Assembly (NCBI GenBank): GCA_049296095.1
Contig: JBAQRV010000001.1
Coordinates: 150,001 to 182,000 of the forward strand
Direction of reading: 5' to 3'
From: Candidatus Saccharimonadota bacterium
GTDB lineage: Bacteria; Patescibacteriota; Saccharimonadia; Saccharimonadales; Saccharimonadaceae
Length of the DNA: 32,000 nt
Both the position numbers and the translations under genes were made by a program. Positions 1 through 13,891 of this stretch are shown here, in pieces. How positions within the stretch are numbered: position 1 is the stretch's first letter; each line of letters opens with the position of its first letter. A model generated the notes under the pieces. It was not told where the DNA came from. It saw nothing but the letters and a program-made list of their open reading frames with translations, and ran no database searches.

Positions 1-3000
1 TGGCGAGTCCAGTTGCGCACATCTGGTTTATGCGCGGAACTCCTTCTGCAATGTCACTATTGCTTGGAATTACCGTTCGTAACCTCGAGCGTATCGCTTA
101 CTTTGCAACCTACGTTGTATTGAAATCAGACGAAGAAACTCGTGACAAGTTCCTTGCCGATCTCGAAGCCGAGACCGAAGCGGGACGTGCTGCGATCAAG
201 ATTCGCTATGAAAAAGAAGCTGAAGCTGAAGGCGCTGACGTAAAAACTCTCGCTGAAGCAATGACTCGTGAGACTGAAGAGTTGAACGAGAGCTACCTCG
301 CGAAGAAGACACAGCTTGAGAGCCTTGTAAAGAACTCTCTCATGAGCGAAGTTGATTATCGAAACCTTCCAGAAGAGTACCAGGATCTCATTGAAGTTGG
401 TATGGGTGGCCAGGCATTGAAGGCACTGCTTGATGCGATCAACCTGAGCGAACTTATCGCTGAGCTGACTGAAGAAGTTGCTGGTGCTAAGGGGCAACGC
501 GAGAAGAAACTTCTCAAGCGCCTGAAGGTGCTTGAGGGTATGCAATCTGCAGGTATCAAGCCATCAAGCTTGACCCTGACTGTGCTTCCAGTGATTCCTC
601 CGGACCTTCGTCCAATGGTGCAGTTGACCGGTGGTCGTTTCGCGACCTCTGACCTTAATGACCTTTATCGTCGCGTTATCAACCGTAACAACCGTTTGAA
701 GAAACTGATCGAGCTCAACGCTCCTGAGGTGATTCGCCGAAACGAAATGCGTATGTTGCAAGAAGCAGTTGATGCTTTGATCGACAACTCAGCAGCTCGT
801 GGTGGCCGTGCGGTGAACGCAACTGGTGGACGACGCCGTCTGAAGTCAATCTCTGACATGCTCAAGGGTAAGCAAGGACGATTCCGTCAGAACTTGCTTG
901 GTAAGCGTGTCGACTACTCTGGACGTTCTGTAATCGTTGTTGGTCCAAAGCTAAAGATTAGCGAATGTGGTCTGCCAAAGCAGATGGCACTCGAACTCTT
1001 TAAGCCGTTTGTGATTCACTGGTTGATTGCTGGGGAATATGCCCACAACATCCGTTCAGCTACTCGTTTGATCGAGTCAGGCGAAGCGATCGTTTGGGAT
1101 GCCCTCGACGCCGTGATTGAAGGTAAGTACGTTCTTTTGAACCGTGCGCCGTCACTTCACCGATTGTCAATCCAGGCTTTCATGCCTAAGTTGGTTGAAG
1201 GTAAAGCTATTCAACTTCACCCACTGGTTGCGAACGGTTTCAACGCCGACTACGACGGTGACCAGATGGCAGTTCACCTTCCTTTGAGCCGTCAGGCACA
1301 ACAGGAAGCTCGTGAGCTGATGAGCGCGACAGCCAACCTCCTAAAGCCAGCTGATGGTGCGCCTGTCCTCTCTATCGCTCAGGACATTGTCCTCGGTAAC
1401 TACTACTTGACCTACGACAAGCCAAGTGCGCAAACTGACGTCCGCAAGGCTTACAGTTCTGTCTATGAGGCTGAAATGGCATATGAGAACAAGGTGATTC
1501 AGCTTCAGACCCCAATCCGCGTTATGACCAAGGGTGAAGTTCGTGATACGACACTGGGACGAGTCTTCTTTAATGAGATTCTGCCAGCTGAATATCCATA
1601 CGACAACAATGTCCAGACCAAAAAGCAACTCAAGAAGGTACTTAATAACATCTTCTTGCAGTATGGTGCTGAAATGACCGCGCAGACTGCTGACCGCATG
1701 AAGGGTATGGCCTTTCGCTTTGCGACCGTCGCTGCCGTATCAACAGGTAAGGATGACTACATTGAATTCGAAGAGACGGCTGAATTCATCGCCGAAGGTG
1801 ACGCGAAAACGACACTGATTAGCGAACAATTCAACCAAGGTCTCATCACCGAAGATGAGCGTTACACCCTCACCGTTGCGACCTGGCGTGGTGTGGTTCG
1901 AAATATTACTGAGTTCCTTCAAGAGAAGCTCAAGGGCATGGATACCAGTGTCTCTGTCATGGTGAACTCTGGTGCTCGTGGTGATATTTCAAACGTCCAG
2001 CTAGCAAGCGCTATGATCGGTATCATGGTCGATGCGACCAACCGTGAAATTGAGCTGCCAATTCGTTCGAGTTACAAGAAGGGTCTGTCATCACTTGAGC
2101 AGTTCGTGGCCACTCGTGGTTCACGTAAGGGTCTGATTGACACCGCGCTTAAGACTGCTGACTCTGGATACCTAACACGACGTTTGGTAGACGTTTCTCA
2201 GGATGTCTTCACCGTTGAAGATACTGCAGGTGACGACGAAGGCTTTACGATCTACCGATCTGAGTCTGAACTGACTATGATCGACTTTGGAAACCGTCTC
2301 TACGGACGATTTGCGGCAGAAAACATCGGCAACTACGTTAAGGCAGGTGAGCTCATTACGCGTGAGATTGCTAACCAAATTGATGTTGACGCTGATATTA
2401 CCGAAGCTAAGATTCGTTCGGTACTCTCAACTAAGAATCTCCGCGGCGTGCCTCAGACTAGCTACGGTATCGATATGTCTACTAACAAGCTTGTCGCGAA
2501 AGCGCAGCCAGTTGGTGTTATCGCTGCCCAATCAGTCGGTGAACCTGGTACCCAGCTAACGCTTCGTACTTTCCACGCCGGTGGTGTGGCCGAAAGTGAC
2601 ATCACCCAGGGTCTCCCTCGTGTTGAAGAGTTATTCGAAGCCCGTTCACCAAAGGGTCAAGCCTTCATGACGGAAGTGACTGGACTCGTTGAGCAGTGGG
2701 AAGATGGCAAGAAGTATATCGTTCAGGTTACTCCTGAAGCAGGACATGTTGAGCGCATCGCGCTTGAAGGACGAACTGCTTCGATTAAGAACGGCAGCAC
2801 CGTAAAGGTCGGAGACGTTCTCGCCAGCGGCGAAAGCGAATCAAAGCCACTGGTTGCACCGTTTGATGGAGTGGTTGAAGTGACTGATGAGCACCTGGTG
2901 CTTGCTGCTAACGCTAGTTCACCAGTTCGTTACGAAGTCCCAGGTAACTACCAGTTGATGGTGAAATCAGGTGACGTTGTTGAAGCTGGTGACCGCCTGA

Positions 3001-3539
3001 CGAATGGTTCATTGAACCTGCATGACCTAATGCGCCTCAAGGGTATCGAAGCGACACAGCGCTACATCATCAACGAAGTGTTGCGTATCTACGCGGCGCA
3101 GGGTCAAGACGTGGCTGACAAGCACCTCGAGATCATCGTTCGACAGATGTTTAGCCGTGTTCAGGTTGAAGATCCAGGTGACAGTGCCTTTGTCACAGGT
3201 GATATCGTCTCGAAGGCTGCAGTGGTTGAAAGCAATGATGCTTTGGCCGCTGAAGGCAAGGAACAGATCGCCTTTACGCAACTGCTTCTTGGTATCACGA
3301 AGGTCTCAATCTGGTCTGATAGCTTCCTGTCGGCTGCATCGTTCCAAGACACGACTCGTGTCCTGATCAACGCTGCTGTCTCAGGTCGTATCGACCGATT
3401 GCACGGACTCAAGGAAAACGTGATCATCGGACGCAAGATCCCTGTCGGAACCGGTGTTGATAGCGCAACCGCGCTTGATACGCTTGATGAGGACGTGGTG
3501 ACGGCTGAGATTGCGGAAGACCTCGAGCTCGCTGCTTAG
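1..3539 (+). CDS. rpoC: DNA-directed RNA polymerase subunit beta-prime, 5'-truncated by the window edge
   Basis: Frame 3 is open from nt 3 (..[14 protein letters not shown]..), so the listed ATG at 30 is internal. Contains the catalytic [12 protein letters not shown] block and conserved [23 protein letters not shown] / LHRLSIQAF blocks. Stop TAG at 3537-3539. Confidence 0.98.
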
Positions 3540-3556
3540 GTACATCTGTGTTTAAG

Positions 3557-3590
3557 AGAGAATGCCTTCCGTATGGAAGGTATTCTCTTT
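3557..3590 (+). terminator. Hairpin terminator candidate downstream of rpoC
   Basis: AGAGAATGCCTTCC (3557-3570), loop GTAT, GGAAGGTATTCTCT (3575-3588): a 14-bp stem with one G-T pair. It is followed by TT-ATGCTT, a weak T-run. Confidence 0.6.
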
Positions 3591-3665
3591 ATGCTTGTGT
3601 GTAATGCCCCGCAGTGGTAACTTAAGGAATAAATGAAAAGGAAGCCGGCATCCGGCTAAGGTTTA

Positions 3666-4373
3666 TTGTTGAAGGATGCCCAAAGAGATATGCAAGCAGG
3701 AGATAGACTAAGTACCTTCATCACACCCTTTATGTTTGATGAGGGGAAAGAGGTTAGTATCGAAAAAATGACCGAAACACTTCGGTTCTTTCTCGAGATG
3801 TCTGTGGGTATATTACAAAAATATGCAGATGATGTTGATACAATCGAAGTGCTAGAAGAAAGTGGGTTTGTAACAGTATTAGAGCTTTCATTAAGAGTAA
3901 CCTCAAGCGATGGCTCCTATCTACATATATTGATATTTGGACATAAGCAAGGTACGGCTATCCTTGACTTAGGCATTTCTATTATCGAGCATGGCCCTAA
4001 GGGAGAGTACATCGGAGGATATCAATACGTAGCGGAAGGTATTGAAGTCCGCCGCTCAAGTACTCGCCTAGCCGATTCTGAAGAGGAGCAAGATGAAGAC
4101 TCTACAATGAGCCATTTTAGCGTTCTCGACCTATACGCTAGTCGGGATGAATTATTTGAACTTATGATGGCAGAGGATGAAGAAACGAAGCGCATTGGAT
4201 TGGAAACAAAAACTGCTATAGAGCAGGATGCCGAGCTTGATGCCTGGGAAGAAGAAATGGGATTTGATAATCAGCCAATTGCAAAGGATGAGCTTGAGAA
4301 AGTAGAAGCTATCTTAAGATCGGCAGAGCTATTTCCCTTGCCTCATCGCCAACTTGGGGGCGACACCGCTTAA
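3666..4373 (+). CDS. Hypothetical protein with strongly acidic C-terminal half (no recognised domain)
   Basis: 708-nt ORF in an otherwise non-coding gap between rpoC and rpsL. The ORF-track start is TTG at 3666; the first ATG is at 3690. An 86-aa stretch (nt 4071-4328) has 29 D/E versus 7 K/R by my count. AT-rich relative to flanking genes (spot count 21/60 G+C in line 3841). Confidence 0.6.
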   Translation: MLKDAQRDMQAGDRLSTFITPFMFDEGKEVSIEKMTETLRFFLEMSVGILQKYADDVDTIEVLEESGFVTVLELSLRVTSSDGSYLHILIFGHKQGTAILDLGISIIEHGPKGEYIGGYQYVAEGIEVRRSSTRLADSEEEQDEDSTMSHFSVLDLYASRDELFELMMAEDEETKRIGLETKTAIEQDAELDAWEEEMGFDNQPIAKDELEKVEAILRSAELFPLPHRQLGGDTA

Positions 4374-4555
4374 CCATTTACTAATCTGTGGATTTCTGCT
4401 ATTATTATTGATGAGTTTCCGCCCATCTATTACGAGTTAATGTACAAGGTTCGTAATCGAGATAGGCACCACTTTCGAAGAATGCTGATCTGAGAGAGTA
4501 ACCATACGATCATCTGATCGTCAATTAATCTGTAATAAGGGAAGTTTATTTAAAC

Positions 4556-4969
4556 ATGCCAACTATCAACCAACTCGTGCGTAAGCCACGAAAGACCGCT
4601 AACGCGAAGAGTAAATCTCCTGCACTCGGTCGTATTCACAATGCGCTCAAAGTTCGTTATTACAACCAGGACGCTCCTTTGAAGCGTGGCGTTTGTATTA
4701 AAGTAACCACCAAGACACCAAAAAAGCCTAACTCGGCCCTCCGTAAGGTTGCTCGTGTTCGTTTGACCAACGGTCAAGAAGTCTGGGCTTACATCGGTGG
4801 TGAAGGTCATAACCTCCAGGAACACGCCGTTGTGCTGGTTCGTGGTGGTCGTGTGCCAGACCTTCCAGGTGTTCGTTATCACATCGTTCGTGGCGCCCTT
4901 GACCTTCAAGGTGTCGCCAACCGTAAGCAGGGTCGTAGCAAGTACGGCGCTAAAAAGGATGACAAGTAA
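4556..4969 (+). CDS. rpsL: 30S ribosomal protein S12
   Basis: [13 protein letters not shown]..., [29 protein letters not shown] and [12 protein letters not shown] signatures. Carries an extra ~13-aa insertion and a Pro at the K88-equivalent position (see findings). Confidence 0.97.
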
Positions 4970-5448
4970 TGCCTCGTAAAGTCACCGTTAGCCTCCAACG
5001 TATTCCAAATCCAGACCGCAAGTACCAAAGCGTGATGGTGCAGCGTTTGATCAACAAATCAATGCTTGATGGTAAGAAAATGCTTGCCGAACGTGCTGTC
5101 TACGAAGCACTGGAAGTCGCTGCCAAGAAACTTGATAGCGAAAACCCACTCGAAGTATTTGAGCGAGCGCTCAAGAATGTTTCACCAAACTTCGAAGTTA
5201 AATCTCGTCGTGTTGGTGGTGCGAACTACCAGATTCCATTCCCAGTTGCTGGACACCGTCAGCTCCACTACGCCTTCACTTGGCTTGTCCAAGCAGCACG
5301 TGGTCGTAAGGGTATCCCTTACTCACAGCGCCTTGCGCTTGAGATCGTCGATGCCTACAACGAAACTGGTGCTGCCTTCAAGAAAAAAGAAGACACCCAC
5401 AAAATGGCCGAAGCCAACCGTGCTTTTGCTCACTTTGCTCGCGGATAA
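4969..5448 (+). CDS. rpsG: 30S ribosomal protein S7
   Basis: Start overlaps the rpsL stop (TAATG). 159 aa with the S7 blocks KSMLDGKK, VKSRRVGGANYQIPFPV and AFAHFAR. Confidence 0.97.
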   Translation: MPRKVTVSLQRIPNPDRKYQSVMVQRLINKSMLDGKKMLAERAVYEALEVAAKKLDSENPLEVFERALKNVSPNFEVKSRRVGGANYQIPFPVAGHRQLHYAFTWLVQAARGRKGIPYSQRLALEIVDAYNETGAAFKKKEDTHKMAEANRAFAHFARG

Positions 5449-5547: not shown

Positions 5548-6225
5548 ATGATTCCTCGAATACCAGCAGAATTCCGTATACCGACCAATCAAACAATTGA
5601 TGATCTTATTGCTGGCGTAGATAGTGATATAAAAGAAGAGGGAAGCGTACGGTCATTCTTGGGTATAATTCGGTTCGACCGACAAAATAGTCAGGCGTTT
5701 TACCATAAGGTGCTTTATCCTTCTACATATTTTGCACTCACACTTGAACTAAGAGATAGTGATGAAAACTTACGAGACCGCCAGCATAGATTAGCGAATG
5801 CAGTACTATCAGGGATGATCTTTGGCCACATTATTAATGAGTCAACGTACCCAGGGGTTGGGCGTAGCCATTTTCCTTATGACAAGATTTGGGTTAATAA
5901 TAATCTGCTAGGAGCTTATAAGGAAAGCTTTGAATCGCATGATGGTATTAAAACGGTAGAGGGAAGGAGGGTCGGCTACTATGCCATGGCACGTACTGCA
6001 ATCCAGGATCTCTCAGATGAATCTTTTGCGAATTTAGAAAAGTGGTCGGAAGATCTCATCCCTGAAGCTGTCTATAGACCGAATTTTACACTAGGATTCG
6101 GGACGGCAATATATAGTGGATGGGATTATTATACTGACAGGTTACTAGCTGAAGGTCGGGGTGACGAATTTATGGTTGCACCCGCCGGATTACCCTCTCC
6201 AAACGATGACCCACTACAAGCCTAA
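5548..6225 (+). CDS. Hypothetical protein, 225 aa (no recognised domain)
   Basis: Clean ATG-initiated ORF between rpsG and fusA. AT-rich (spot count 21/60 G+C in line 5881). Flanked by the rpsG terminator and its own promoter-like signal. Confidence 0.65.
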   Translation: MIPRIPAEFRIPTNQTIDDLIAGVDSDIKEEGSVRSFLGIIRFDRQNSQAFYHKVLYPSTYFALTLELRDSDENLRDRQHRLANAVLSGMIFGHIINESTYPGVGRSHFPYDKIWVNNNLLGAYKESFESHDGIKTVEGRRVGYYAMARTAIQDLSDESFANLEKWSEDLIPEAVYRPNFTLGFGTAIYSGWDYYTDRLLAEGRGDEFMVAPAGLPSPNDDPLQA

Positions 6226-6300: not shown

Positions 6301-6351
6301 AAAGACAAATGGGAATAAACACAAACACGATGAAAGGCCTTGGTTACTAAT

Positions 6352-7134
6352 ATGACGATAGAGCGTGTGCGTCCCGATGACGTAACGCGCTCACGCCGCC
6401 TGCCACCACTTGAAGCCTGGAAGAAGCCGGATAAGTGGATTGATATCTCTAGCGGTCTAGCTAGGAGAGATGCACCTAGACTCGTGTTTGCTGCTGATGA
6501 TCGTGGTTTTGTTAGACCAGATCAAATTGTAGAGTCGATTACCGATACCTTATTCTGGAATGATTACGATTGGCCATTTGAGCCTGGCGATGTAGAGACA
6601 CGGCCTGACGAGCATCACTTTTACTACGAAAGAAAGAAGTACTTGGTCGACGCAAATCATGGAGATGAGATTCCGCATCAATTTCGCGAACTACCAACTT
6701 CAATAGGAAGAATGCCTCGACAATTACATAATGCAATTCACGATTTTTCACTTCCACCTGAAAAGCCAGATAATGAAGCAATGCGAGAATATGTCGGCTC
6801 GTATCAATTGGCGCATGAGGCGTTTAGAAAAATGTTCAAGAGAGCGAAGCGAGTATTGCATCATATAGATATGCCTTATGATATGGCGCCGTTTGACATA
6901 AATGAGAAAAGGATGGATCCGATTGATGAAGCCTTTATGCAAAGCTTCTTTTCAGAGCACTTTAAAACATACAGTGTTTCTATAGAATTATTCCGTGTTG
7001 CATCCCAGAACATTGACCTCGAACAGTATATCCTTGAAGCACATCGACAACGGATGATCGAGTTTGCTGAGCGTATTGGGGATTTTGCTAGTCAGAAATA
7101 TTTTAACTTCACCCCTCTTCTGCAAGCGGCATAA
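6352..7134 (+). CDS. Hypothetical protein with a D-E-H-H ... N ... H-N-A-I-H motif (possible His-Me finger / HNH-EndoVII-like fold; speculative)
   Basis: ORF is open from TTG 6340; the first ATG is at 6352. DEHH is at nt 6607-6618 and LHNAIH at nt 6724-6741, with ANHG between them. No other recognisable domain. Confidence 0.6.
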   Translation: MTIERVRPDDVTRSRRLPPLEAWKKPDKWIDISSGLARRDAPRLVFAADDRGFVRPDQIVESITDTLFWNDYDWPFEPGDVETRPDEHHFYYERKKYLVDANHGDEIPHQFRELPTSIGRMPRQLHNAIHDFSLPPEKPDNEAMREYVGSYQLAHEAFRKMFKRAKRVLHHIDMPYDMAPFDINEKRMDPIDEAFMQSFFSEHFKTYSVSIELFRVASQNIDLEQYILEAHRQRMIEFAERIGDFASQKYFNFTPLLQAA

Positions 7135-7169
7135 TATGGAGCCCACTACTGGTAGTTATTCAGAAATTC

Positions 7170-7178
7170 TGCTATAAT
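7170..7178 (+). promoter_or_regulatory. Extended -10 promoter element upstream of fusA
   Basis: TGcTATAAT matches the TGnTATAAT extended -10 consensus, 67 nt upstream of ATG 7245. No good -35 box. Confidence 0.5.
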
Positions 7179-7244
7179 GTAACTAAAGCGCTATTCTTTA
7201 TGGCAAAAAATATTTAGACAACTAAGAGAAAGAGATGACCAACT

Positions 7245-9335
7245 ATGGCCCAAGCTAACGTTCCACTAAAGGACTTCCGTAATATCGGTATTATTGCCCA
7301 CATTGATGCGGGTAAAACAACTACAACCGAAGGTATTTTGTACCGAACGGGTATTAGCCACAAAATCGGTGCGGTTCATGATGGTGAAACCACTACTGAC
7401 TGGATGGCTCAAGAGCGCGAACGTGGTATCACGATTACTTCTGCTGCCGTGACGGCTTTCTGGAAGGGTCACAAGATCAACATCATCGATACCCCTGGCC
7501 ACATCGACTTTACAGCCGAAGTTGAGCGTTCACTCCGTGTTCTTGACGGTGCGGTGACCGTTTTCGACGGCAAGATGGGTGTCGAAGCACAGACAGAGAC
7601 TGTTTGGCGTCAAGCTAACAAGTACGGCGTGCCTCGTATCTGTTTCATTAACAAGATTAACCAAATTGGTGGTGACTTCTACAAATCTCTCGACTCGATT
7701 CACCTGCGTCTTTCAAAGCACGCCCTGCCTATTCACCTTCCTATTGGGTTTGAAAAGGAAATCAACGGTGTTGTCGACCTCGTTGATATGAAGGCCTACA
7801 CTTACAATGACTTTACTGACCACGAACTAATGGTTGGTGAAATTCCTGCCGACATGCTCGAAAAGGCTAAGCATGCACGTAGCCTCTTGGTTGAAGCAGC
7901 CGTTGAAGCTGAAGATGAACTGTTTGAACGATTCTTGACCGAAGGTGAAGAGTCTATCTCTGTTGAGGATCTTAAGCGGGCCCTTCGTAAGCGAGTACTT
8001 GCTGGTGACTTTTATCTTGTCACTGGTGGAGATGGCCGTGGGGTGATTGTTGAGAAGGTTCTTGACCTCGTGAACGACTACCTGCCATCACCGCTTGATG
8101 TTGAGGCTATTCAGGGTACTAACCCAAAGACTGGTGATCTCGTTGAACGCCAGCCTGCAGATAGTGAACCGCTCGCTGCACTTGCTTTTAAGATCGCAAC
8201 CGACCCATTTGTTGGACGACTTATCTTCGTTCGTGTCTACAGTGGTAAATTGACTGCCGGTAGTTACGTACTGAACACGACTACTGGTGACAAGGAGCGT
8301 ATCGGTCGCATCGTTCGTATGCACGCCGACAAGCGTGAAGACATCGATATGATTGGTGCAGGTGACATCGCTGCCGTCGTAGGCCTCAAGGACACCTTTA
8401 CTGGTGCCACCCTAGCGGACCCTGCGCATCCAATTTTGCTTGAATCAATCGACTTCCCAGAACCACCTGTTTCAATTGCTGTTGAGCCTAAGACCAAAGC
8501 TGACCAAGAGAAGATGGGTATTGCGCTGCAACGCCTGGCCGAAGAGGACCCAACCTTCCGTATTCACACAGACGAAGAGACTGGACAGACGATCATGTCT
8601 GGAATGGGCGAGCTTCACCTCGAGATCCTAGTTGATCGTATGAAGCGTGAATTCAATGTTGAAGCCAATGTTGGTGAGCCACAGGTTGCCTTCCGTGAAA
8701 CAATTCGCGGCATGGCTGAAGCCCAAGGTAAGCACGCCAAGCAATCAGGTGGACGTGGTCAGTATGGTGACGTCTGGATTCGATTTGAGCCGACTGAATC
8801 TGGTATTGGCTTTGAATTCGTTGATGAAATTAAGGGTGGTGTGGTCCCTCAGGAATACCGAAAGCCAGTTGAAAAAGGTATTCACGACACGCTCGATAGC
8901 GGTGTGATCGCCGGCTATCCAATGATCGGTGTCAAAGCAACCCTTTATGACGGTAGCTACCACGACGTGGACTCAAGCGAACTTGCCTTCAATCTGGCTG
9001 GTGTGTTGGCTGTCAAAGAAGGTATTCCAAAGGCAAAACCTGTTATTCTTGAGCCTGTCATGAAGGTTGAAGTATCAACCCCAGAAGACTTCATGGGTGA
9101 TATCATCGGTGACCTTAACGCTCGCCGTGGCCGTATCGATGCCATGGAAGACATTCCTGGTGGCGCCAAGCTGGTTCGTGCCTTTGTCCCTCTCTCAAAC
9201 CTGTTTGGGTACACCAATGACATTCGCTCGATGAGCCAAGGTCGCGCTGCATCAACTATGGAACTTGCTCAATACGAGGAAGTACCACCAAATGTTGCTG
9301 CCGAGATCATCGCCAAGCGAACCAACAAAGCCTAG
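7245..9335 (+). CDS. fusA: Elongation factor G
   Basis: 696 aa. G-domain motifs [17 protein letters not shown] and NKIN, plus EF-G domain IV/V blocks ([24 protein letters not shown]). Confidence 0.98.
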
Positions 9336-9344
9336 TACATCGAA

Positions 9345-9377
9345 ATACCCGGACCTAAAGAGCCGGGTATTTTATTT
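9345..9377 (+). terminator. Rho-independent terminator after fusA
   Basis: ATACCCGG (9345-9352), 10-nt loop, CCGGGTAT (9363-9370), then TTTATTT. Confidence 0.85.
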
Positions 9378-9396
9378 GGAATAAAGAATTGATTTG

Positions 9397-9402
9397 TAGA
9401 AT
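9397..9402 (+). promoter_or_regulatory. -10 box (TAGAAT) immediately upstream of the RadC-N ORF (leaderless layout)
   Basis: TAGAAT lies 7 nt upstream of ATG 9410. The -35 is weak (TTTGGA 9375-9380 with a 16-nt spacer). Confidence 0.4.
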
Positions 9403-9409
9403 GGGGGGT

Positions 9410-9679
9410 ATGGAGTTCGTACTATATCAGCGACCACGCGAAAAGCTACAGAGCAAGGGTGTTAAAGCGCTCTCTGTCGTCGAATTGCTCCAAGTTATCC
9501 TCGGGTCAGGTAGTCCTGATGCTTCAGGGGCAAAGATTGCGCGCTTGATTGAGAAGTTGATGATAGATAACGACGTCACGTATGAAACGCTGTTGTCGAT
9601 TCGAGGTGTCGGTAACGCAAAGACCTGTCAGATATTGGCCGCGTTTGAATTAAGTAAGAGAATGATGCCTCATGAATGA
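9410..9679 (+). CDS. RadC-family N-terminal (helix-hairpin-helix) region only; no JAB/MPN domain
   Basis: ..RPREKLQSKGVKALSVVELLQVILGSGS...IRGVGNAKTCQILAAFELSKR aligns block for block with the N-terminus of E. coli RadC/YicR as I recall it (PREK..G..AL...ELLA..L.TG......I.GIG.AK...L....EL.RR). The protein ends after ~90 aa without the HNHPSG JAB motif. Alternative starts: ATG 9401, TTG 9389. Confidence 0.75.
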   Translation: MEFVLYQRPREKLQSKGVKALSVVELLQVILGSGSPDASGAKIARLIEKLMIDNDVTYETLLSIRGVGNAKTCQILAAFELSKRMMPHE

Positions 9680-10112
9680 AGTTGTTGAGCTAAGGCGATG
9701 GCATCAACGTGCTCAGATTGATTACAAGTATCATTACATGGGCCTGTACGCAGCTTTTAACGCTTGGTATCGGCTGACGACAGGTGCCCATAATGATCGC
9801 GAGGCGCTGAATAAGCTGCGGATGGGGAATGTGACGTGGGAGCAATACTGTAGGGGTAGAACTATGCGCGAACTGGCACAGTACATGAATATGTTAGTCG
9901 AATGTACCCAACGAGAGCCGATTTCACACACGACACCACACTGGAACGGCGAGGTAGCACACACGAAAGATTGGCCCTCTGTCGTGGAGTACTGGTATAG
10001 GGTACGATGCCTTGTTATGCACGGTGCCGAGATACGTTCAGTCTATGTCTATCTTGCATACGAAACGCTTAACATTTTCATGACTGAAGTTATCACGCAA
10101 AAGCACTATTAA
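9672..10112 (+). CDS. Hypothetical 146-aa protein with an RxRCxxxHG motif (HEPN-like Rx4H; speculative)
   Basis: The ATG overlaps the RadC-N stop by 8 nt (ATGAATGA). YRVRCLVMHG at aa 109-118 (nt 9996-10025) resembles the HEPN signature R-R-N-x-x-x-H-G, with Cys replacing Asn, and sits in the last third of a small protein as in HEPN domains. Confidence 0.6.
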   Translation: MNEVVELRRWHQRAQIDYKYHYMGLYAAFNAWYRLTTGAHNDREALNKLRMGNVTWEQYCRGRTMRELAQYMNMLVECTQREPISHTTPHWNGEVAHTKDWPSVVEYWYRVRCLVMHGAEIRSVYVYLAYETLNIFMTEVITQKHY

Positions 10113-10117
10113 TACTG

Positions 10118-10146
10118 TTTACAACACTTCTAAAACAAGCTATAAT
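10118..10146 (+). promoter_or_regulatory. Sigma70-like promoter for tuf
   Basis: TTTACA (10118-10123), 17-nt spacer, TATAAT (10141-10146). A strong SD (AAAGAGGAG, 10192-10200) precedes ATG 10212. Confidence 0.7.
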
Positions 10147-10211
10147 TAGCCTATACGTCATGAGATGGCTATATTCTTATGCGAAATAATTAAAGAGGAG
10201 ATATAAACTAA

Positions 10212-11393
10212 ATGGCAGATTTCGATCGAACCAAGCCACATGTTAACGTTGGAACTATGGGTCACGTTGACCACGGTAAAACAACGCTTACAGCAGCTAT
10301 CACAGCTGTGCTTGCAAAACGACTTCCTAGCGAAGTAAACAAGCCAATTGCTTATGACCAAATTGACAACGCCCCAGAAGAGCGTGCGCGTGGTATTACC
10401 ATTGCTACCTCTCACCAGGAATACGAGTCAGAAAAGCGTCACTACGCTCACGTTGACATGCCAGGACACGCTGACTATGTAAAAAACATGATCACCGGTG
10501 CTGCACAGATTGACGGCGCAATCCTCGTGGTTGCGGCAAACGACGGTCCTTTGCCACAAACTCGTGAGCACGTTCTGCTTGCTCACCAGGTTGGTGTGCC
10601 AAAGATCCTTGTTTTCCTAAACAAGATGGACCTTGCCGACCCAGAACTAGTTGAACTCGTTGAAATGGACATTCGTGAACTACTCGCAAAGAACGGGTAC
10701 GACGAAAACGCTCCTATCATCAAGGGTTCAGCAACCAAGGCTCTCGAAGGTGATCCTGCATCTGAGGATGCAATCATGGAACTGGTAAAGGCTCTTGATG
10801 AGTACGTTCCAGAACCAACTCGTGAGCTCGACAAGCCATTCTTGATGCCAGTTGAAGACGTCTTCTCAATTAAGGGACGTGGAACTGTTGCAACTGGACG
10901 TATTGAGCAAGGTATCGTAAAGATCAACGACGAAGTTGAAATTGTCGGTGTTCGCCCAACTCAGAAGTCTGTTGTGACTGGAATTGAAGCCTTCAAAAAG
11001 AACCTTAACCAAGGTCAAGCTGGTGACAACGCTGGACTCCTCCTTCGTGGAATTGAGCGTGAAGACATCGAACGTGGCCAGGTTATCGTCAAGCCAGGCT
11101 CATTGACTCCTCACACTGAATTTGAAGCTGAAGTCTACATCCTTAAGAAGGAAGAAGGTGGTCGCCACACTCCTTTCTCAAAGGGTTACAAGCCTCAGTT
11201 CTACTTCCGAACCACTGACGTGACAGGCGAAGTTGAACTTCCAGCTGACAAGGAACTGGTTATCCCTGGTGATACAGTAACTTTCATCGTGAAGCTTCTC
11301 GCTCCTATCGCCATGGAACAAGGTTTGAACTTTGCTATCCGTGAAGGTGGTAAGACTGTTGGTGCCGGTGTGGTTACCAAGGTTGTTAAATAA
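10212..11393 (+). CDS. tuf: Elongation factor Tu
   Basis: 393 aa with [18 protein letters not shown] and NKMD, and typical EF-Tu domains II and III. Confidence 0.99.
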
Positions 11394-11416: not shown

Positions 11417-11446
11417 ATCCCCGGAGAAATCCGGGGTATTTTTTTG
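11417..11446 (+). terminator. Rho-independent terminator after tuf
   Basis: CCCCGGA (11419-11425), loop GAAA, TCCGGGG (11430-11436), then TATTTTTTT. Confidence 0.85.
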
Positions 11447-11452
11447 CTTGAA

Positions 11453-11490
11453 ATGCGAAAAACCCGCCAGATCCCGGAGGAACTAGCGGG
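11453..11490 (-). terminator. Minus-strand terminator of cassette A; copy 1 of a repeated 3' element
   Basis: Minus strand reads CCCGCTAG-TTCCTCCGGGA-TCTGGCGGG-TTTTTCGCAT. Shares the ..GTTCCTCCGG.A.CTGGCGG.GTTTT(T)CGCAT.. string with copy 2. Confidence 0.7.
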
Positions 11491-11499
11491 TAGTTCGCT

Positions 11500-12009
11500 T
11501 CAACGGGACTGACGGGCGAGTTGTCGCTCATTGCGACGCTTGGCACGAAAGTAGGCACGGTTGTTGGCTGCAAGACGACGCCGTATCCGACGTAGCTCTG
11601 CGGTCGGTACTTCAATGAAGTAGTACCTTGGACCACCGATACTGTGGCTGAAATCAAGGAACCGAAAGCTCCTAGCGAACCGCTCGAGTAGCTTCTCAGC
11701 GTTGTCGTGCGTTGTCAGGCAACGGATGTACGCGTCCGAATAGCCATCAACGCGCACCAAGTTCTCGTTTCGGAGAAAGGGGAGCGCCAGGATCCACAAG
11801 CCATCAATCTCGACTAGCCGAATGGTGACTTTTCGGTCGCCCTTGATCAGCGCGATTGGCAGCCTGAGGAGTGCCTTCCAGAGTTCCTTTCGCAAGGTCT
11901 TCAGGGTGAGCACTTGTGCCGCCTGAAATTCTTCTTCGGAGAGATTGGCGAGTTCTCGATTGCGCCAATGTTTGGGAGGCTCGAAGCCCTTATCCCATGG
12001 ACTTAGCAT
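11500..12009 (-). CDS. Hypothetical protein A, 169 aa, Arg-rich C-terminal tail
   Basis: ATG at 12009 is preceded by GAAGAAGG. Has its own promoter and terminator. C-terminus is ELRRIRRRLAANNRAYFRAKRRNERQLARQSR. No recognised domain. GC-richer than surroundings (spot counts 34/60, 32/60, 34/60). Confidence 0.65.
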   Translation of the reverse strand: MLSPWDKGFEPPKHWRNRELANLSEEEFQAAQVLTLKTLRKELWKALLRLPIALIKGDRKVTIRLVEIDGLWILALPFLRNENLVRVDGYSDAYIRCLTTHDNAEKLLERFARSFRFLDFSHSIGGPRYYFIEVPTAELRRIRRRLAANNRAYFRAKRRNERQLARQSR

Positions 12010-12066
12010 AGAACCTTCTTCGTGTCGGTGAATGTGCGTGTAACTACTAGGGATACAACTATCTAT

Positions 12067-12095
12067 ATTATACTACAATCGTTATGTAAAGTCAA
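12067..12095 (-). promoter_or_regulatory. Near-consensus sigma70 promoter for cassette A
   Basis: Minus strand: TTGACT (12095-12090), 17-nt spacer, TATAAT (12072-12067). Confidence 0.7.
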
Positions 12096-12113
12096 TGATT
12101 TGAGATGTCGGGA

Positions 12114-12178
12114 ATGCGAAAACCTCCGCCAGTTCCGGAGGAACTCGTGGGGGAATTCGCGTCGACGGATGGCGGAGG
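12114..12178 (-). terminator. Minus-strand terminator of cassette B; copy 2 of the repeated 3' element
   Basis: Minus strand: CCTCCGCC (pairing with GGCGGAGG), an internal GTTCC-TCC-GGAAC hairpin, then TTTTCGCAT. Confidence 0.6.
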
Positions 12179-12203
12179 TAGGGTTGACAGGTAGATCGGA
12201 TAG

Positions 12204-12533
12204 TTACTTGACTCGGAAGACCATACGCTCAGGTTCCCATACGAGCCTTGTCGTGGTAGTGTAGGGTTTCGTGTTCATCCAGCTGGGTGCCAGGACGAGC
12301 ATGGTGTACTCGCGTGCTTCGATGTAGGCGACGAGTTGAACGAGTTGCTTAGGTGACAGCCTGTCTAGGCCGCCGATGAGTTGCCACGGCGTGACATAGT
12401 CCATGCTGTGTCGTTTTCCGTCTCGCAGGGACTGTTCCATCGAGATCTCAAAGATCGAAATGGCAACCTGATCCTGTCCATCCAGGAGATCTAGACAACG
12501 TTCGGTTGTCGAGATGGGAACTACTTCAGTCAT
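12204..12533 (-). CDS. Hypothetical protein B, ~109 aa
   Basis: ORF is open to TTG 12548; the first ATG is at 12533 (MTEVVPIS...). No clear SD. Has its own promoter and terminator. No recognised domain. Confidence 0.55.
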   Translation of the reverse strand: MTEVVPISTTERCLDLLDGQDQVAISIFEISMEQSLRDGKRHSMDYVTPWQLIGGLDRLSPKQLVQLVAYIEAREYTMLVLAPSWMNTKPYTTTTRLVWEPERMVFRVK

Positions 12534-12580
12534 AATATATCCAATCAATGTTCGAGGCCTGAAACTCAGAGCTTGGGCGT

Positions 12581-12609
12581 ACTATATAAAACTTGACCGA
12601 CCCTGTCAA
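12581..12609 (-). promoter_or_regulatory. Near-consensus sigma70 promoter for cassette B
   Basis: Minus strand: TTGACA (12609-12604), 17-nt spacer, TATAGT (12586-12581). Confidence 0.7.
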
Positions 12610-12620
12610 TTGGTTTTGAG

Positions 12621-12674
12621 ATGCGAAAACCCCGCTGACCTGGATGGCCAATTGGGCCTTCGACGGGTGCGGGG
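12621..12674 (-). terminator. Minus-strand terminator of cassette C; copy 3 of the repeated 3' element
   Basis: Minus strand: CCCCGC directly after the stop codon, an internal GGCC..GGCC palindrome, GCGGGG, then TTTTCGCATCTC. Confidence 0.6.
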
Positions 12675-13031
12675 TTAGAGATGGAAGATGTAGCGAAATC
12701 GTACGTGGATCGTCTCGAACGCGTAGTACTCGATGCGAAGAACGGTTCCGAACGACGCAAAGTTCCTCCGAACATACTCCTCGATTGCTTCTCGGAGGTA
12801 CCGAGCGTCGAGTCTGTCGTCTCTTGTGTACAGGTACACCCGGGGTTGCTTGTTGTTCCCGACGACGTAGTCCTGTCGTGCGAGCCCGATCACCAAACCC
12901 AGTTCCGGGCCAATCGTGGCTTCGACATGAGCGATCGCGCGTTCGCGAAGATCTTGCTCGTAGTCACGCCATCTCTTCTTGTCGGCTCGCTCATGGGCTC
13001 GTCGATTGCGGAGAGTTTGACGTCTCTGCAT
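12675..13031 (-). CDS. Hypothetical protein C, ~118 aa, Arg-rich N-terminus
   Basis: ATG at 13031 is preceded by AAAGGAAG. The longer ORF to 13139 starts at TTG inside the promoter and is unlikely. N-terminus is MQRRQTLRNRRAHERADKKRWR. No recognised domain. Spot G+C 37/60 in line 12841. Confidence 0.6.
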   Translation of the reverse strand: MQRRQTLRNRRAHERADKKRWRDYEQDLRERAIAHVEATIGPELGLVIGLARQDYVVGNNKQPRVYLYTRDDRLDARYLREAIEEYVRRNFASFGTVLRIEYYAFETIHVRFRYIFHL

Positions 13032-13110
13032 TACTTCCTTTCGGTTAAGTATGCCTTTCACAATAGTTCCTTTCAATCGGTGATGTACTAATCGGTCAGG
13101 CTGGTTTCTA

Positions 13111-13139
13111 TTTATATCATGGGGTAGATAAGGATGCAA
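13111..13139 (-). promoter_or_regulatory. Sigma70-like promoter for cassette C, back to back with the rpsJ promoter
   Basis: Minus strand: TTGCAT (13139-13134), 17-nt spacer, TATAAA (13116-13111). Confidence 0.6.
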
Positions 13140-13140
13140 C

Positions 13141-13169
13141 TTGCCAGTTTTGTATTTGTTTGCTAAGAT
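13141..13169 (+). promoter_or_regulatory. Sigma70-like promoter for rpsJ
   Basis: TTGCCA (13141-13146), 17-nt spacer, TAAGAT (13164-13169). Leaves a ~95-nt leader before ATG 13271. Confidence 0.55.
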
Positions 13170-13270
13170 TAACCCCGTATTATATTAATCATTCCGACAA
13201 CTCGGCCAGACGCGAACACCACCGATTCGAGCAGAGGTTACGGGATACAACAAGAAAGGTTTCTTCCCTC

Positions 13271-13597
13271 ATGGCAGAAGCACCAAAAGAAGCAGGCCTC
13301 CGAATTCGGATTCGCCTCAAGGCCTATGACCACAAGGTCATCGACCAATCAGCAAAACAAATTATCGATACGGCTATTCGTACAGGCGCGAGCATTGCTG
13401 GCCCAGTACCTTTGCCAACTCGACGTAGTACATTTACAGTAGTCAAGTCGCCGCACGTCTACAAAAAGGGCGGTGAAACGTTTGAAATGCGTATTCACAA
13501 GCGCTTGATTGATATCACCAACGCCACCCCAAAGACGATCGACAGTCTACAGAACCTCAGCCTCCCAGCTGGTGTTGATGCAGAAATCCGTATGTAA
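13271..13597 (+). CDS. rpsJ: 30S ribosomal protein S10
   Basis: [35 protein letters not shown]...HKRLIDI. The upstream part of the listed ORF (13160-13270) is leader, not S10-like. Confidence 0.96.
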
Positions 13598-13654: not shown

Positions 13655-13891
13655 CTACTGAGCCAAGATTACCTGTGTGAGATTTGCAATGTCCATCTGT
13701 AGTTTCAAGATCCATAACTGAGAGATGATAATAAACACCATTAAGATAACCCAGTACGCAGTCTGCTTGGTGATACGTGTACTAAAGAAGGGAATGGTAT
13801 CTTTTTCAATACGAAACGAGCGCATTGGTGCCTGCGAAGCCTTGCGGGTTGTTTTGACGGTTCGCTTTGTTGATTTCTTTTTTGTTGCCAT
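13655..13891 (-). CDS. Small membrane protein, 78 aa (basic N-terminus plus one predicted TM helix)
   Basis: ATG is preceded by TAGGAG 8 nt upstream. MATKKKSTKRTVKTTRK... is followed by the hydrophobic AYWVILMVFIIISQLWIL. Convergent with rpsJ onto the shared terminator. Confidence 0.6.
   Translation of the reverse strand: MATKKKSTKRTVKTTRKASQAPMRSFRIEKDTIPFFSTRITKQTAYWVILMVFIIISQLWILKLQMDIANLTQVILAQ

Follow-up and report, generated by a model that had tools for sequence, protein, structure and literature searches.

A candidate cassette hotspot between tuf and rpsJ in Saccharibacteria, with a conserved structured element behind its small genes

The DNA analysed here, a 32-kb window (the whole stretch of 32,000 nucleotides), comes from the genome of a Candidatus Microsaccharimonas sp., an ultra-small member of the Saccharibacteria, and carries rpoC, rpsL, rpsG, fusA, tuf, rpsJ, and rplC onward in this order, with three minus-strand open reading frames (ORFs), here called A, B, and C, between tuf and rpsJ. 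Each of the three ends in a copy of one conserved structured element of 65-80 nt (about 70 nt), hereafter ELEM, and in related genomes the same junction holds other small genes, often with the same element behind them. We moderately favour the view that Microsaccharimonas-like Saccharibacteria have a hotspot for cassettes in their tuf-rpsJ spacer, lineage-wide and lineage-specific, of which the block is one local example and where ELEM would act both as terminator and as homology for the swapping of cassettes. An initial annotation of this DNA had described three minus-strand ORFs (169, 109, and 118 aa) between tuf and rpsJ, which are indeed present; it missed that their three terminators are homologous to each other and that the junction is used as a cassette site across the lineage.

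In gene sense, the consensus of ELEM reads ACCCCGCC-AY-CCCGUUGAMGCGAA-CCCYAA-GGUUCC-UCCG-GGAACU-GGCGGGG-UUUUCGCWUUU. The window contains exactly three matches to it at E<=10, all on the minus strand. The copy serving as 3' element and predicted terminator of A (e1, 11446-11523) was found by nhmmer with an E-value of 5.8e-15 and matched our covariance model at 11450-11518 with 44.3 bits; the conserved TGA within this copy provides the stop codon of A (11500-11502). The one behind B (e2, 12108-12185) gave an E-value of 2.6e-13 and a covariance-model match at 12111-12180. The third (e3, 12614-12682; E-value 3.7e-08), at the end of C, is a divergent copy, and the stop codon of C abuts its basal helix.

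For comparison we sampled loci encoding an identical S10 protein, together with metagenome contigs bearing an invariant 19-mer of the rpsJ leader (CGATTCGAGCAGAGGTTAC), which yielded 93 complete tuf-rpsJ junctions and 861 kb of related loci with flanks of ~5 kb (loci are designated below by L and a number). Within these 861 kb, a first ELEM profile matched 65 times and a richer one 70 times. All 70 copies lie inside the junction or, on 6 contigs without tuf, upstream of the rpsJ leader: junctions make up 12% of the sequence searched, yet they hold every copy, and the orientation is identical in 70/70. A gapped-pattern scan of GTDB species genomes gave, among the matches listed, three true ELEM loci, all of them in Saccharibacteria and between tuf and the rpsJ leader; most matches listed were chance occurrences in high-GC genomes. 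One viral match (L136) turned out not to be an ELEM, and a second viral scan was empty. Rfam 15 holds no matching family, the best overlaps being at chance level (BSnc120, 21 bits against a gathering threshold of 114; sX5, 16 against 50), and we found no description of ELEM or of a tuf-rpsJ hotspot in the literature.

The element is tightly tied to genes. Directly upstream of 54/58 copies lies an ORF of at least 70 codons, and these ORFs stop at two discrete places, either just before the basal helix or at the conserved TGA in the internal loop. When the stop is the TGA inside ELEM, unrelated proteins consequently share C-terminal residues encoded by the element (ARQSR in A; PVTSR, PAVSA, and PVAST elsewhere). 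At the other end, conservation stops sharply after UUUCGCWUUU. The association is not strict: two junctions (L012 and L225) have a promoter and an ELEM without any ORF, and ~25 loaded junctions have no ELEM.

Re-alignment of 49 copies with a covariance model built from 12 clean ones resolved the fold of ELEM, for which RNAalifold on a plain MAFFT alignment, not aware of structure, had returned nothing. It consists of a 7-bp basal helix (CCCCGCC/GGCGGGG), a conserved asymmetric internal loop, and a 5-bp apical hairpin capped by a tetraloop, followed by UUUUCGCWUUU. In the two helices 98.1% of the cells are paired and compensatory changes are found in 10/12 pairs (58 cells), figures that are somewhat inflated because the alignment was fitted to the structure; the observed pairing was reached by 0/500 shuffles, and slid controls gave 18-66%. 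Independent compensatory changes of the basal helix can be seen, for instance, in e2 of the window and L001 (CCUCCGCC/GGCGGAGG), in L243 (CCCCACC/GGUGGGG), and in L246 (CCGCUAG/CUAGCGG). Most copies have UCCG, a UNCG tetraloop, as their apical loop; L012 and L014 have GCAA, a GNRA loop. Since these special loops exist only on the minus-strand transcript, we argue that RNA is the selected form. ELEM is hence a candidate new structured RNA motif, so far undescribed and backed by covariation. An alternative helix of GCGAA-CCC with GGG-UUUUCGC, as a second conformer or pseudoknot, was rejected: it lacks covariation support. For e1 only, it remains the minimum free energy fold.

As minus-strand RNA, copies e1, e2, and e3 of the window fold with -32.7, -29.6, and -24.3 kcal/mol (z of -4.9, -4.4, and -3.2), and each hairpin is followed by UUUU(U)CGCAU. 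A stable GC-rich hairpin followed by a U-run predicts an intrinsic terminator, so that the GC stem plus T-run proposed for each gene by the initial annotation is borne out. A simple terminator scan missed all three because their loops are long. At the opposite end of the units, the promoter of A (TTGACT-17-TATAAT, 12067-12095, minus strand) and that of B (TTGACA-17-TATAGT, 12581-12609, minus strand; conserved in L001) match the sigma-70 consensus at 11/12 positions each. The promoter of C (TTGCAT-17-TATAAA, 13111-13139, minus strand), read from the sequence, is present as well, but with 8/12 positions it is not near-consensus, as the initial annotation had labelled all three. It is the positional homologue of the TTGACA-17-TATAAA of relatives, standing back to back with the rpsJ promoter (L012, L014, L001). 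Scanning the region for promoter-like sites yielded 6, where shuffles gave 2.2 +/- 1.6. With a predicted promoter and a predicted terminator for each gene, the block reads as three independent, monocistronic units rather than an operon, as had been proposed; each is, by its predicted signals, a self-contained minus-strand transcription unit made of a sigma-70-type promoter, a Shine-Dalgarno (SD) site, a small and mostly ORFan gene, and ELEM.

A, B, and C are genuine accessory proteins, specific to the strain. Gene A (11500-12009, minus strand) encodes a 169-aa ORFan; a strain variant in L003 differs at 4 sites, with 3/4 single-nucleotide polymorphisms (SNPs) synonymous in the minus frame, and the codon log-likelihood ratio (LLR) is +26 for this frame. 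Gene B (12204-12533, minus strand; 109 aa from its ATG) is the sole cassette gene of the window whose protein has a homologue, 74% identical and found in L001. Between the two, the ratio of nonsynonymous to synonymous divergence (dN/dS) is 0.096 in the minus frame and differences fall 19/13/53 on the three codon positions: B is under purifying selection. Gene C (12675-13031, minus strand) encodes a 118-aa ORFan from its ATG, behind a strong SD site (AAAGGAAGT). Exactly antisense to it lies a 136-aa plus-strand ORF (12681-13091), and gene callers disagree, with JGI picking the plus-strand ORF in L003 and L004 and NCBI picking C. Whether validated cassette genes or core genes served as training set, codon models favoured the minus frame over the antisense ORF (+7.9 and +11.8 nats), and the antisense ORF is a shadow ORF as expected for a gene rich in GC at third codon positions (GC3). 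Given that SD site, promoter, and 3' element are oriented as in every other cassette, we accepted C on the minus strand, although the evidence is weaker and the assignment less certain than for A and B. The coding signal (SNPs in A, dN/dS in B, codon LLR in C) therefore favours the minus strand over plus-strand shadow ORFs, which the initial annotation had named as a rival. In the NCBI annotation the three minus-strand products are WAV04_03950, WAV04_03955, and WAV04_03960, all hypothetical.

The content of the junction varies strongly. The 93 junctions range from 139-220 bp, when empty, up to 5.7 kb, and their ORFs fall into 225 clusters (shadow ORFs included), so that the same conserved flanking pair encloses different content in related genomes, as in a hotspot. 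A typical junction consists of tuf and its terminator, optional plus-strand genes, one to three units (ELEM, minus-strand ORF or ORFs, promoter), and the rpsJ promoter. The optional plus-strand cargo includes an unknown ~150-aa family, a HIT protein, pilin-like proteins and, in three contigs, a set with an arginine deiminase-ornithine carbamoyltransferase fusion. Cargo families are mostly unrelated, with few pairs significantly similar by profile comparison. Only contigs nearly identical to one another (99.7-100% identity) show the A-B-C arrangement itself; at the junction of ten relatives whose S10 protein is identical there are 0, 1, or 2 different genes, and L001 has the B homologue alone, with its promoter and ELEM, to which the window adds A on the tuf side and C on the rpsJ side. 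The block is thus accessory, as the initial annotation held, and these data show gain, loss, and replacement at the junction and refute an ancestral block common to the lineage.

Pairs of related loci show how the exchange is laid out. L161 and L176 are collinear at 76-80% identity except that one internal gene has been swapped for an unrelated one, with the left breakpoint exactly at the edge of ELEM. L164 and L200 share 91-93% identity in their flanks, among them an accessory gene and ELEM, and the coding region between ELEM and the promoter or 5' untranslated region (UTR) is unalignable; the cassette proteins are 23-40% identical, and their dN reaches 6-9 times the value of F0, the accessory gene next to them. 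In both pairs, the replaced segment extends from the edge of ELEM to near the promoter or 5'UTR. Between L207 and L219, ELEM is 97% identical, the adjacent gene 80%, and the next gene cannot be aligned; L207 also has an extra cassette between genes of families F9 and F10. Some replacements spare both ELEM and promoter, swapping the ORF only.

The block also stands out in composition. Its GC content is 0.525, compared to 0.479 +/- 0.018 for equal-size windows elsewhere (z 2.5), which exceeds the maximum of all 540 such windows and makes it the most GC-rich 1.7-kb stretch of the 32 kb. GC3 is 0.62-0.65 in the cassette genes and 0.43-0.53 in the core genes. The initial annotation was right that the block is GC-richer, yet the shift is smaller than its spot counts implied.

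How could such a pattern arise? In the hotspot model, ELEM would be an intrinsic terminator that halts cassette transcription before it enters, in antisense, the convergent and highly expressed tuf or the next cassette. ELEM, the cassette promoter, the rpsJ leader, and tuf may at the same time serve as homology arms for cassette exchange, a role suggested by the fact that all four are far better conserved than the cargo. DNA taken up by naturally competent cells would then replace, add, or delete cassettes through RecA-type or homology-facilitated recombination. Natural transformation has been shown for Saccharibacteria, and arms of only 221 bp suffice for recombination in them (PMC10187176). 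We scanned the unassigned ORFs of the window for recombinases and other Pfam domains and found none, nor was a recombinase called in the flanks of 10 relatives; together with the published competence (PMC10187176), this lack of a recombinase nearby is what leads us to the exchange model. Several observations weigh against it. An arm of 70 nt is shorter than the 221 bp shown experimentally. ELEM borders sharply on unrelated sequence, be it the terminator of tuf, a promoter, or a convergent gene's 3' end, and joining to new neighbours needs illegitimate or site-specific events beyond plain homologous recombination. Conservation of ELEM, including its ~22-nt internal loop, exceeds what a terminator needs, which hints at a further function. 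In the homologous families F1 and F3 dS is saturated, and import is therefore inseparable from fast divergence in place. The restriction of ELEM to this locus applies within the sampled sequence, namely flanks of ~5 kb and the listed matches of one pattern scan, and promoter use and termination are predictions.

The short arm, the sharp borders, and the excess conservation keep two alternatives alive, which we regard as unlikely to a similar degree. In one of them, with integron-like logic, ELEM is a recombination site, as folded single-stranded DNA or bound duplex, for a recombinase encoded elsewhere, and cassettes are excised and inserted at its borders. A single structured element behind many unrelated ORFs, always in one orientation, bordered sharply on both sides and with ORF stops at two discrete positions, is what such a system should leave behind, as are cassette numbers from 0 to 3 or more, ORF-less promoter-plus-ELEM units (L012, L225), and an element far better conserved than its cargo; but neither the 32-kb window nor the flanks of relatives yielded an integrase or recombinase, no RYYYAAC/GTTRRRY attC cores are found in ELEM by reading, and the UNCG/GNRA loops on the transcript strand point to selection on RNA and not DNA. 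Cassettes with their own promoters and replacements that leave out ELEM and promoter (ORF-only swaps) also fit this logic poorly, and the positional orthology of ELEM copies (L161a with L176a, L161b with L176b) fits vertical descent of arrays. The other alternative takes ELEM mainly as a functional RNA, either a small RNA derived from a 3'UTR or a site bound by a protein or the ribosome, with the ORFs as secondary passengers; it is compatible with a terminator role. The many junctions with minus-strand genes and no ELEM, and those that are empty, mean that the element is dispensable, and 54/58 copies sit directly after a sizeable ORF, neither of which one would expect from this reading; no target or partner is known, and the switch-like alternative pairing is without covariation support. 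Its strengths are the defined fold backed by covariation, the 97% conservation of ELEM against 80% for neighbouring coding sequence, the conserved internal-loop sequence CCCGUUGA.GCGAACC with a CCUCC within the loop, the ORF-less units of L012 and L225, and the lack of an Rfam match, which would make it an undescribed element. At its boldest, this line of thought would make ELEM the site of an undescribed capture system of Saccharibacteria, with integron-like logic, unrelated parts, a recombinase elsewhere, and one fixed site in the ribosomal super-operon for ORFan cassettes that express themselves, or else a new RNA class that all cassettes must carry, for which we see an outside chance.

Very unlikely, in our view, is that there was no horizontal exchange and that ancestral resident genes diverged very fast in place and were differentially lost. 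Many genomes do have families F1, F2, and F3 at one and the same position, ELEM copies show positional orthology, B occupies the same site in two genomes, and with saturated dS old alleles look like imported ones; set against this are the non-homologous replacement between the collinear arrays of L161 and L176, the extra cassette between F9 and F10 in L207, the absence of A and C from L001, acquired operons such as the arginine deiminase system in the same junction, a GC3 shift of +0.13 to +0.2 relative to core genes, and a cassette dN 6-9 times that of the adjacent F0. We give almost no credence to the suggestion of the initial annotation that the cassettes were captured from a host. The usual hosts of Saccharibacteria are high-GC actinobacteria, and the block does exceed the remainder of the window somewhat in GC; yet its GC of 0.525 is intermediate, well below the level usual in these hosts, homologues of A, B, and C are missing from 5.8 billion clusters except for the B copy in the related L001, and promoters, SD sites, and ELEM are specific to this clade of Saccharibacteria.

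Comparison with known systems places the locus near several of them. Like integron arrays, including CALINs (attC clusters without integrase), it gathers small unrelated genes of the same orientation, in variable number and with mostly unknown cargo, each followed by a copy of one imperfect-palindrome element. Unlike integrons, there is no IntI near the junction arrays (a feature also absent in CALINs), and the array lies between two core translation genes instead of beside attI/intI. Differences from both extend to the element, which ends in (A/C)CCCCGCC ... GGCGGGGUUUUCGCWUUU with no GTTRRRY, judged by reading with no IntegronFinder search with the attC covariance model, and whose selection seems to act on the transcript strand (UNCG/GNRA loops), and to the promoter that each cassette has for itself (11/12 sigma-70 positions in A and B), integron cassettes being promoterless. 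The phage "morons" of Hendrix and colleagues are reportedly units of promoter, gene, and terminator between conserved genes, often of deviant GC and with their own transcription. The tuf-rpsJ units resemble them in being self-contained and set between conserved genes, but differ in that tuf and rpsJ are not prophage genes, no match was found in a phage collection, the terminator is shared and homologous, and one fixed chromosomal site is used across the lineage. The hotspots of Oliveira et al. 2017 and the replacement flexible islands of Alteromonas are said to hold variable content between core genes. With these the junction shares conserved core flanks, differing content, no integrase, and presumed homologous recombination in the flanks; unlike them it is of tiny scale (0.1-5.7 kb), lies inside the str/S10 ribosomal super-operon, and is modular with a dedicated conserved RNA element. 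REP/BIME, Correia, and RUP/BOX elements are intergenic hairpin repeats found genome-wide in tens to hundreds of copies, which also work as terminators or stabilise mRNA. They are, like ELEM, short conserved hairpin-forming repeats just 3' of genes, but dispersed over the genome, whereas ELEM was found in one junction and one orientation only. Overall, the locus fits the general class of horizontal-transfer hotspots between core genes, from which the dedicated RNA element sets it apart.

Because Saccharibacteria have tiny genomes with strong synteny, where and how new genes enter them matters, and the junction would let them in at one precise place, common to the lineage, within the genome's most conserved gene cluster. 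The promoter-ORF-terminator unit would be an expression cassette provided by nature and might offer a landing pad to the emerging genetic tools of Saccharibacteria, and the ORFan proteins, with their rapid turnover, are candidates for strain-specific roles of an episymbiont in interaction or defence.

What the cassette proteins do could not be read from homology. A, B, and C matched no domain or family in Pfam, PHROGs, PADLOC, NCBIfam, or PDB sequences, and nine other cassette families had no significant match in Pfam, PADLOC, PHROGs, and NCBIfam; no known toxin, antitoxin, or defence family was found among these twelve. A word-indexed homology search of 5.8 billion clusters returned only self-matches for A and C, and for B itself and one homologue, and when A was run with full HMMER against 1.84 billion representative proteins, the only matches were A itself and one of low complexity. 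The block showed no similarity by blastn to a phage collection (50,697 phage records) or a plasmid collection. AlphaFold2 models of A and B were of low confidence and unusable (predicted local distance difference test, pLDDT, of 55 for A and 58 for B, the latter from a 2-sequence alignment), and Foldseek of the B model against PDB gave a best E-value of 0.32. That the three proteins have no recognisable domain, as first noted, agrees with the domain and family searches. For a hidden "B-like" superfamily (B, F1, F2, F9, F11), profile comparison gave no more than a weak lead: only F9-F11 was significant, with B-F2 at 43% probability and the rest lower. These five do have a weak C-terminal motif in common, L.W......F.V. 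The arginine-rich C-terminal helix of A and the arginine-rich N-terminal helix of C are as the initial annotation had quoted them; that they bind nucleic acids would be a guess from their composition. It is likewise only a guess, based on their turnover, divergence, and occasional two-gene operons, that A, B, and C might belong to conflict or interaction systems (defence, toxin-immunity, or host interaction).

Two-gene cassettes occur in L014 (junction 142-758), as F3+F1 in L141, L164, L176, L200, and L239, and as F10+F9 in L219 and L254. In the L014 cassette stop and start codons overlap, resembling toxin-antitoxin-like pairs, and a logic of that type may apply to the cassettes. A larger load is found in L152, L191, and L199, where positions 168-5086 of the junction encode a 778-aa arginine deiminase/ornithine carbamoyltransferase fusion, an arcD-like transporter, and a carbamate kinase, assigned by reading the translations. 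The arginine deiminase system is reported to be an adaptive acquisition of mammal-associated Saccharibacteria, in whose description the tuf-rpsJ location is not mentioned (PMC8764695). L211 and L216 lie on one 914-kb contig (Ga0208896_1000001), in which the rpsJ leader and an identical empty 140-bp junction appear twice, ~750 kb apart; this may be an assembly concatemer of a ~750-kb genome.

On its left, the block is flanked by tuf (EF-Tu; 10212-11393, plus strand), a 393-aa ORF with GTP_EFTU domains detected on the identical L002 gene, and by the intrinsic terminator of tuf, a 7-bp GC stem with a T-run found by a terminator scan (11419-11446, plus strand) and convergent with ELEM e1. On its right lies the rpsJ promoter (TTGCCA-17-TAAGAT with a TG; 13141-13169, plus strand), which came from a promoter scan and is divergent from that of C, and then the conserved leader and rpsJ itself (13170-13597, plus strand, by comparison of relatives; coding span 13271-13597).

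Other junctions of the cluster are occupied too. Three plus-strand ORFs without a domain (3666-4373, 5548-6225, and 6340-7134; 235, 225, and 264 aa) interrupt rpoC-rpsL and rpsG-fusA. They are AT-rich, with a GC of 0.43 and a GC3 of 0.34-0.39, and at these two positions relatives have unknown genes of differing number and size, showing that other str/S10 junctions are variable as well, with a compositional bias opposite to that of the cassettes. Between fusA and tuf, a RadC-like gene (9389-9679) is cut down to its UPF0758_N domain (96 aa) and overlaps a 146-aa ORF without a domain (9672-10112); relatives have a full RadC-like protein of ~213 aa there, followed by a variable partner of 164-206 aa. 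The S10 operon is split between rpsJ and rplC by a gene for a 78-aa basic protein with a hydrophobic stretch (13655-13891, minus strand), a putative membrane protein that matched no family, and a minus-strand gene of 79-102 aa sits at the same position in 10/10 relatives examined. In L012 the rpsJ-rplC position (6795-10409) holds an ABC transporter, an unknown gene, and a class-A beta-lactamase-like gene, and pilin-like N_methyl/He_PIG proteins are encoded after rpsJ in L011 (6427-7098) and after tuf in L007 (4892-5869). The 5' leader of rpsJ (13170-13270, ~100 nt) had no Rfam match in an E-value scan covering it; it is highly conserved, its 19-mer being invariant in >120 metagenome contigs, and it may be an undescribed S10-operon leader RNA.

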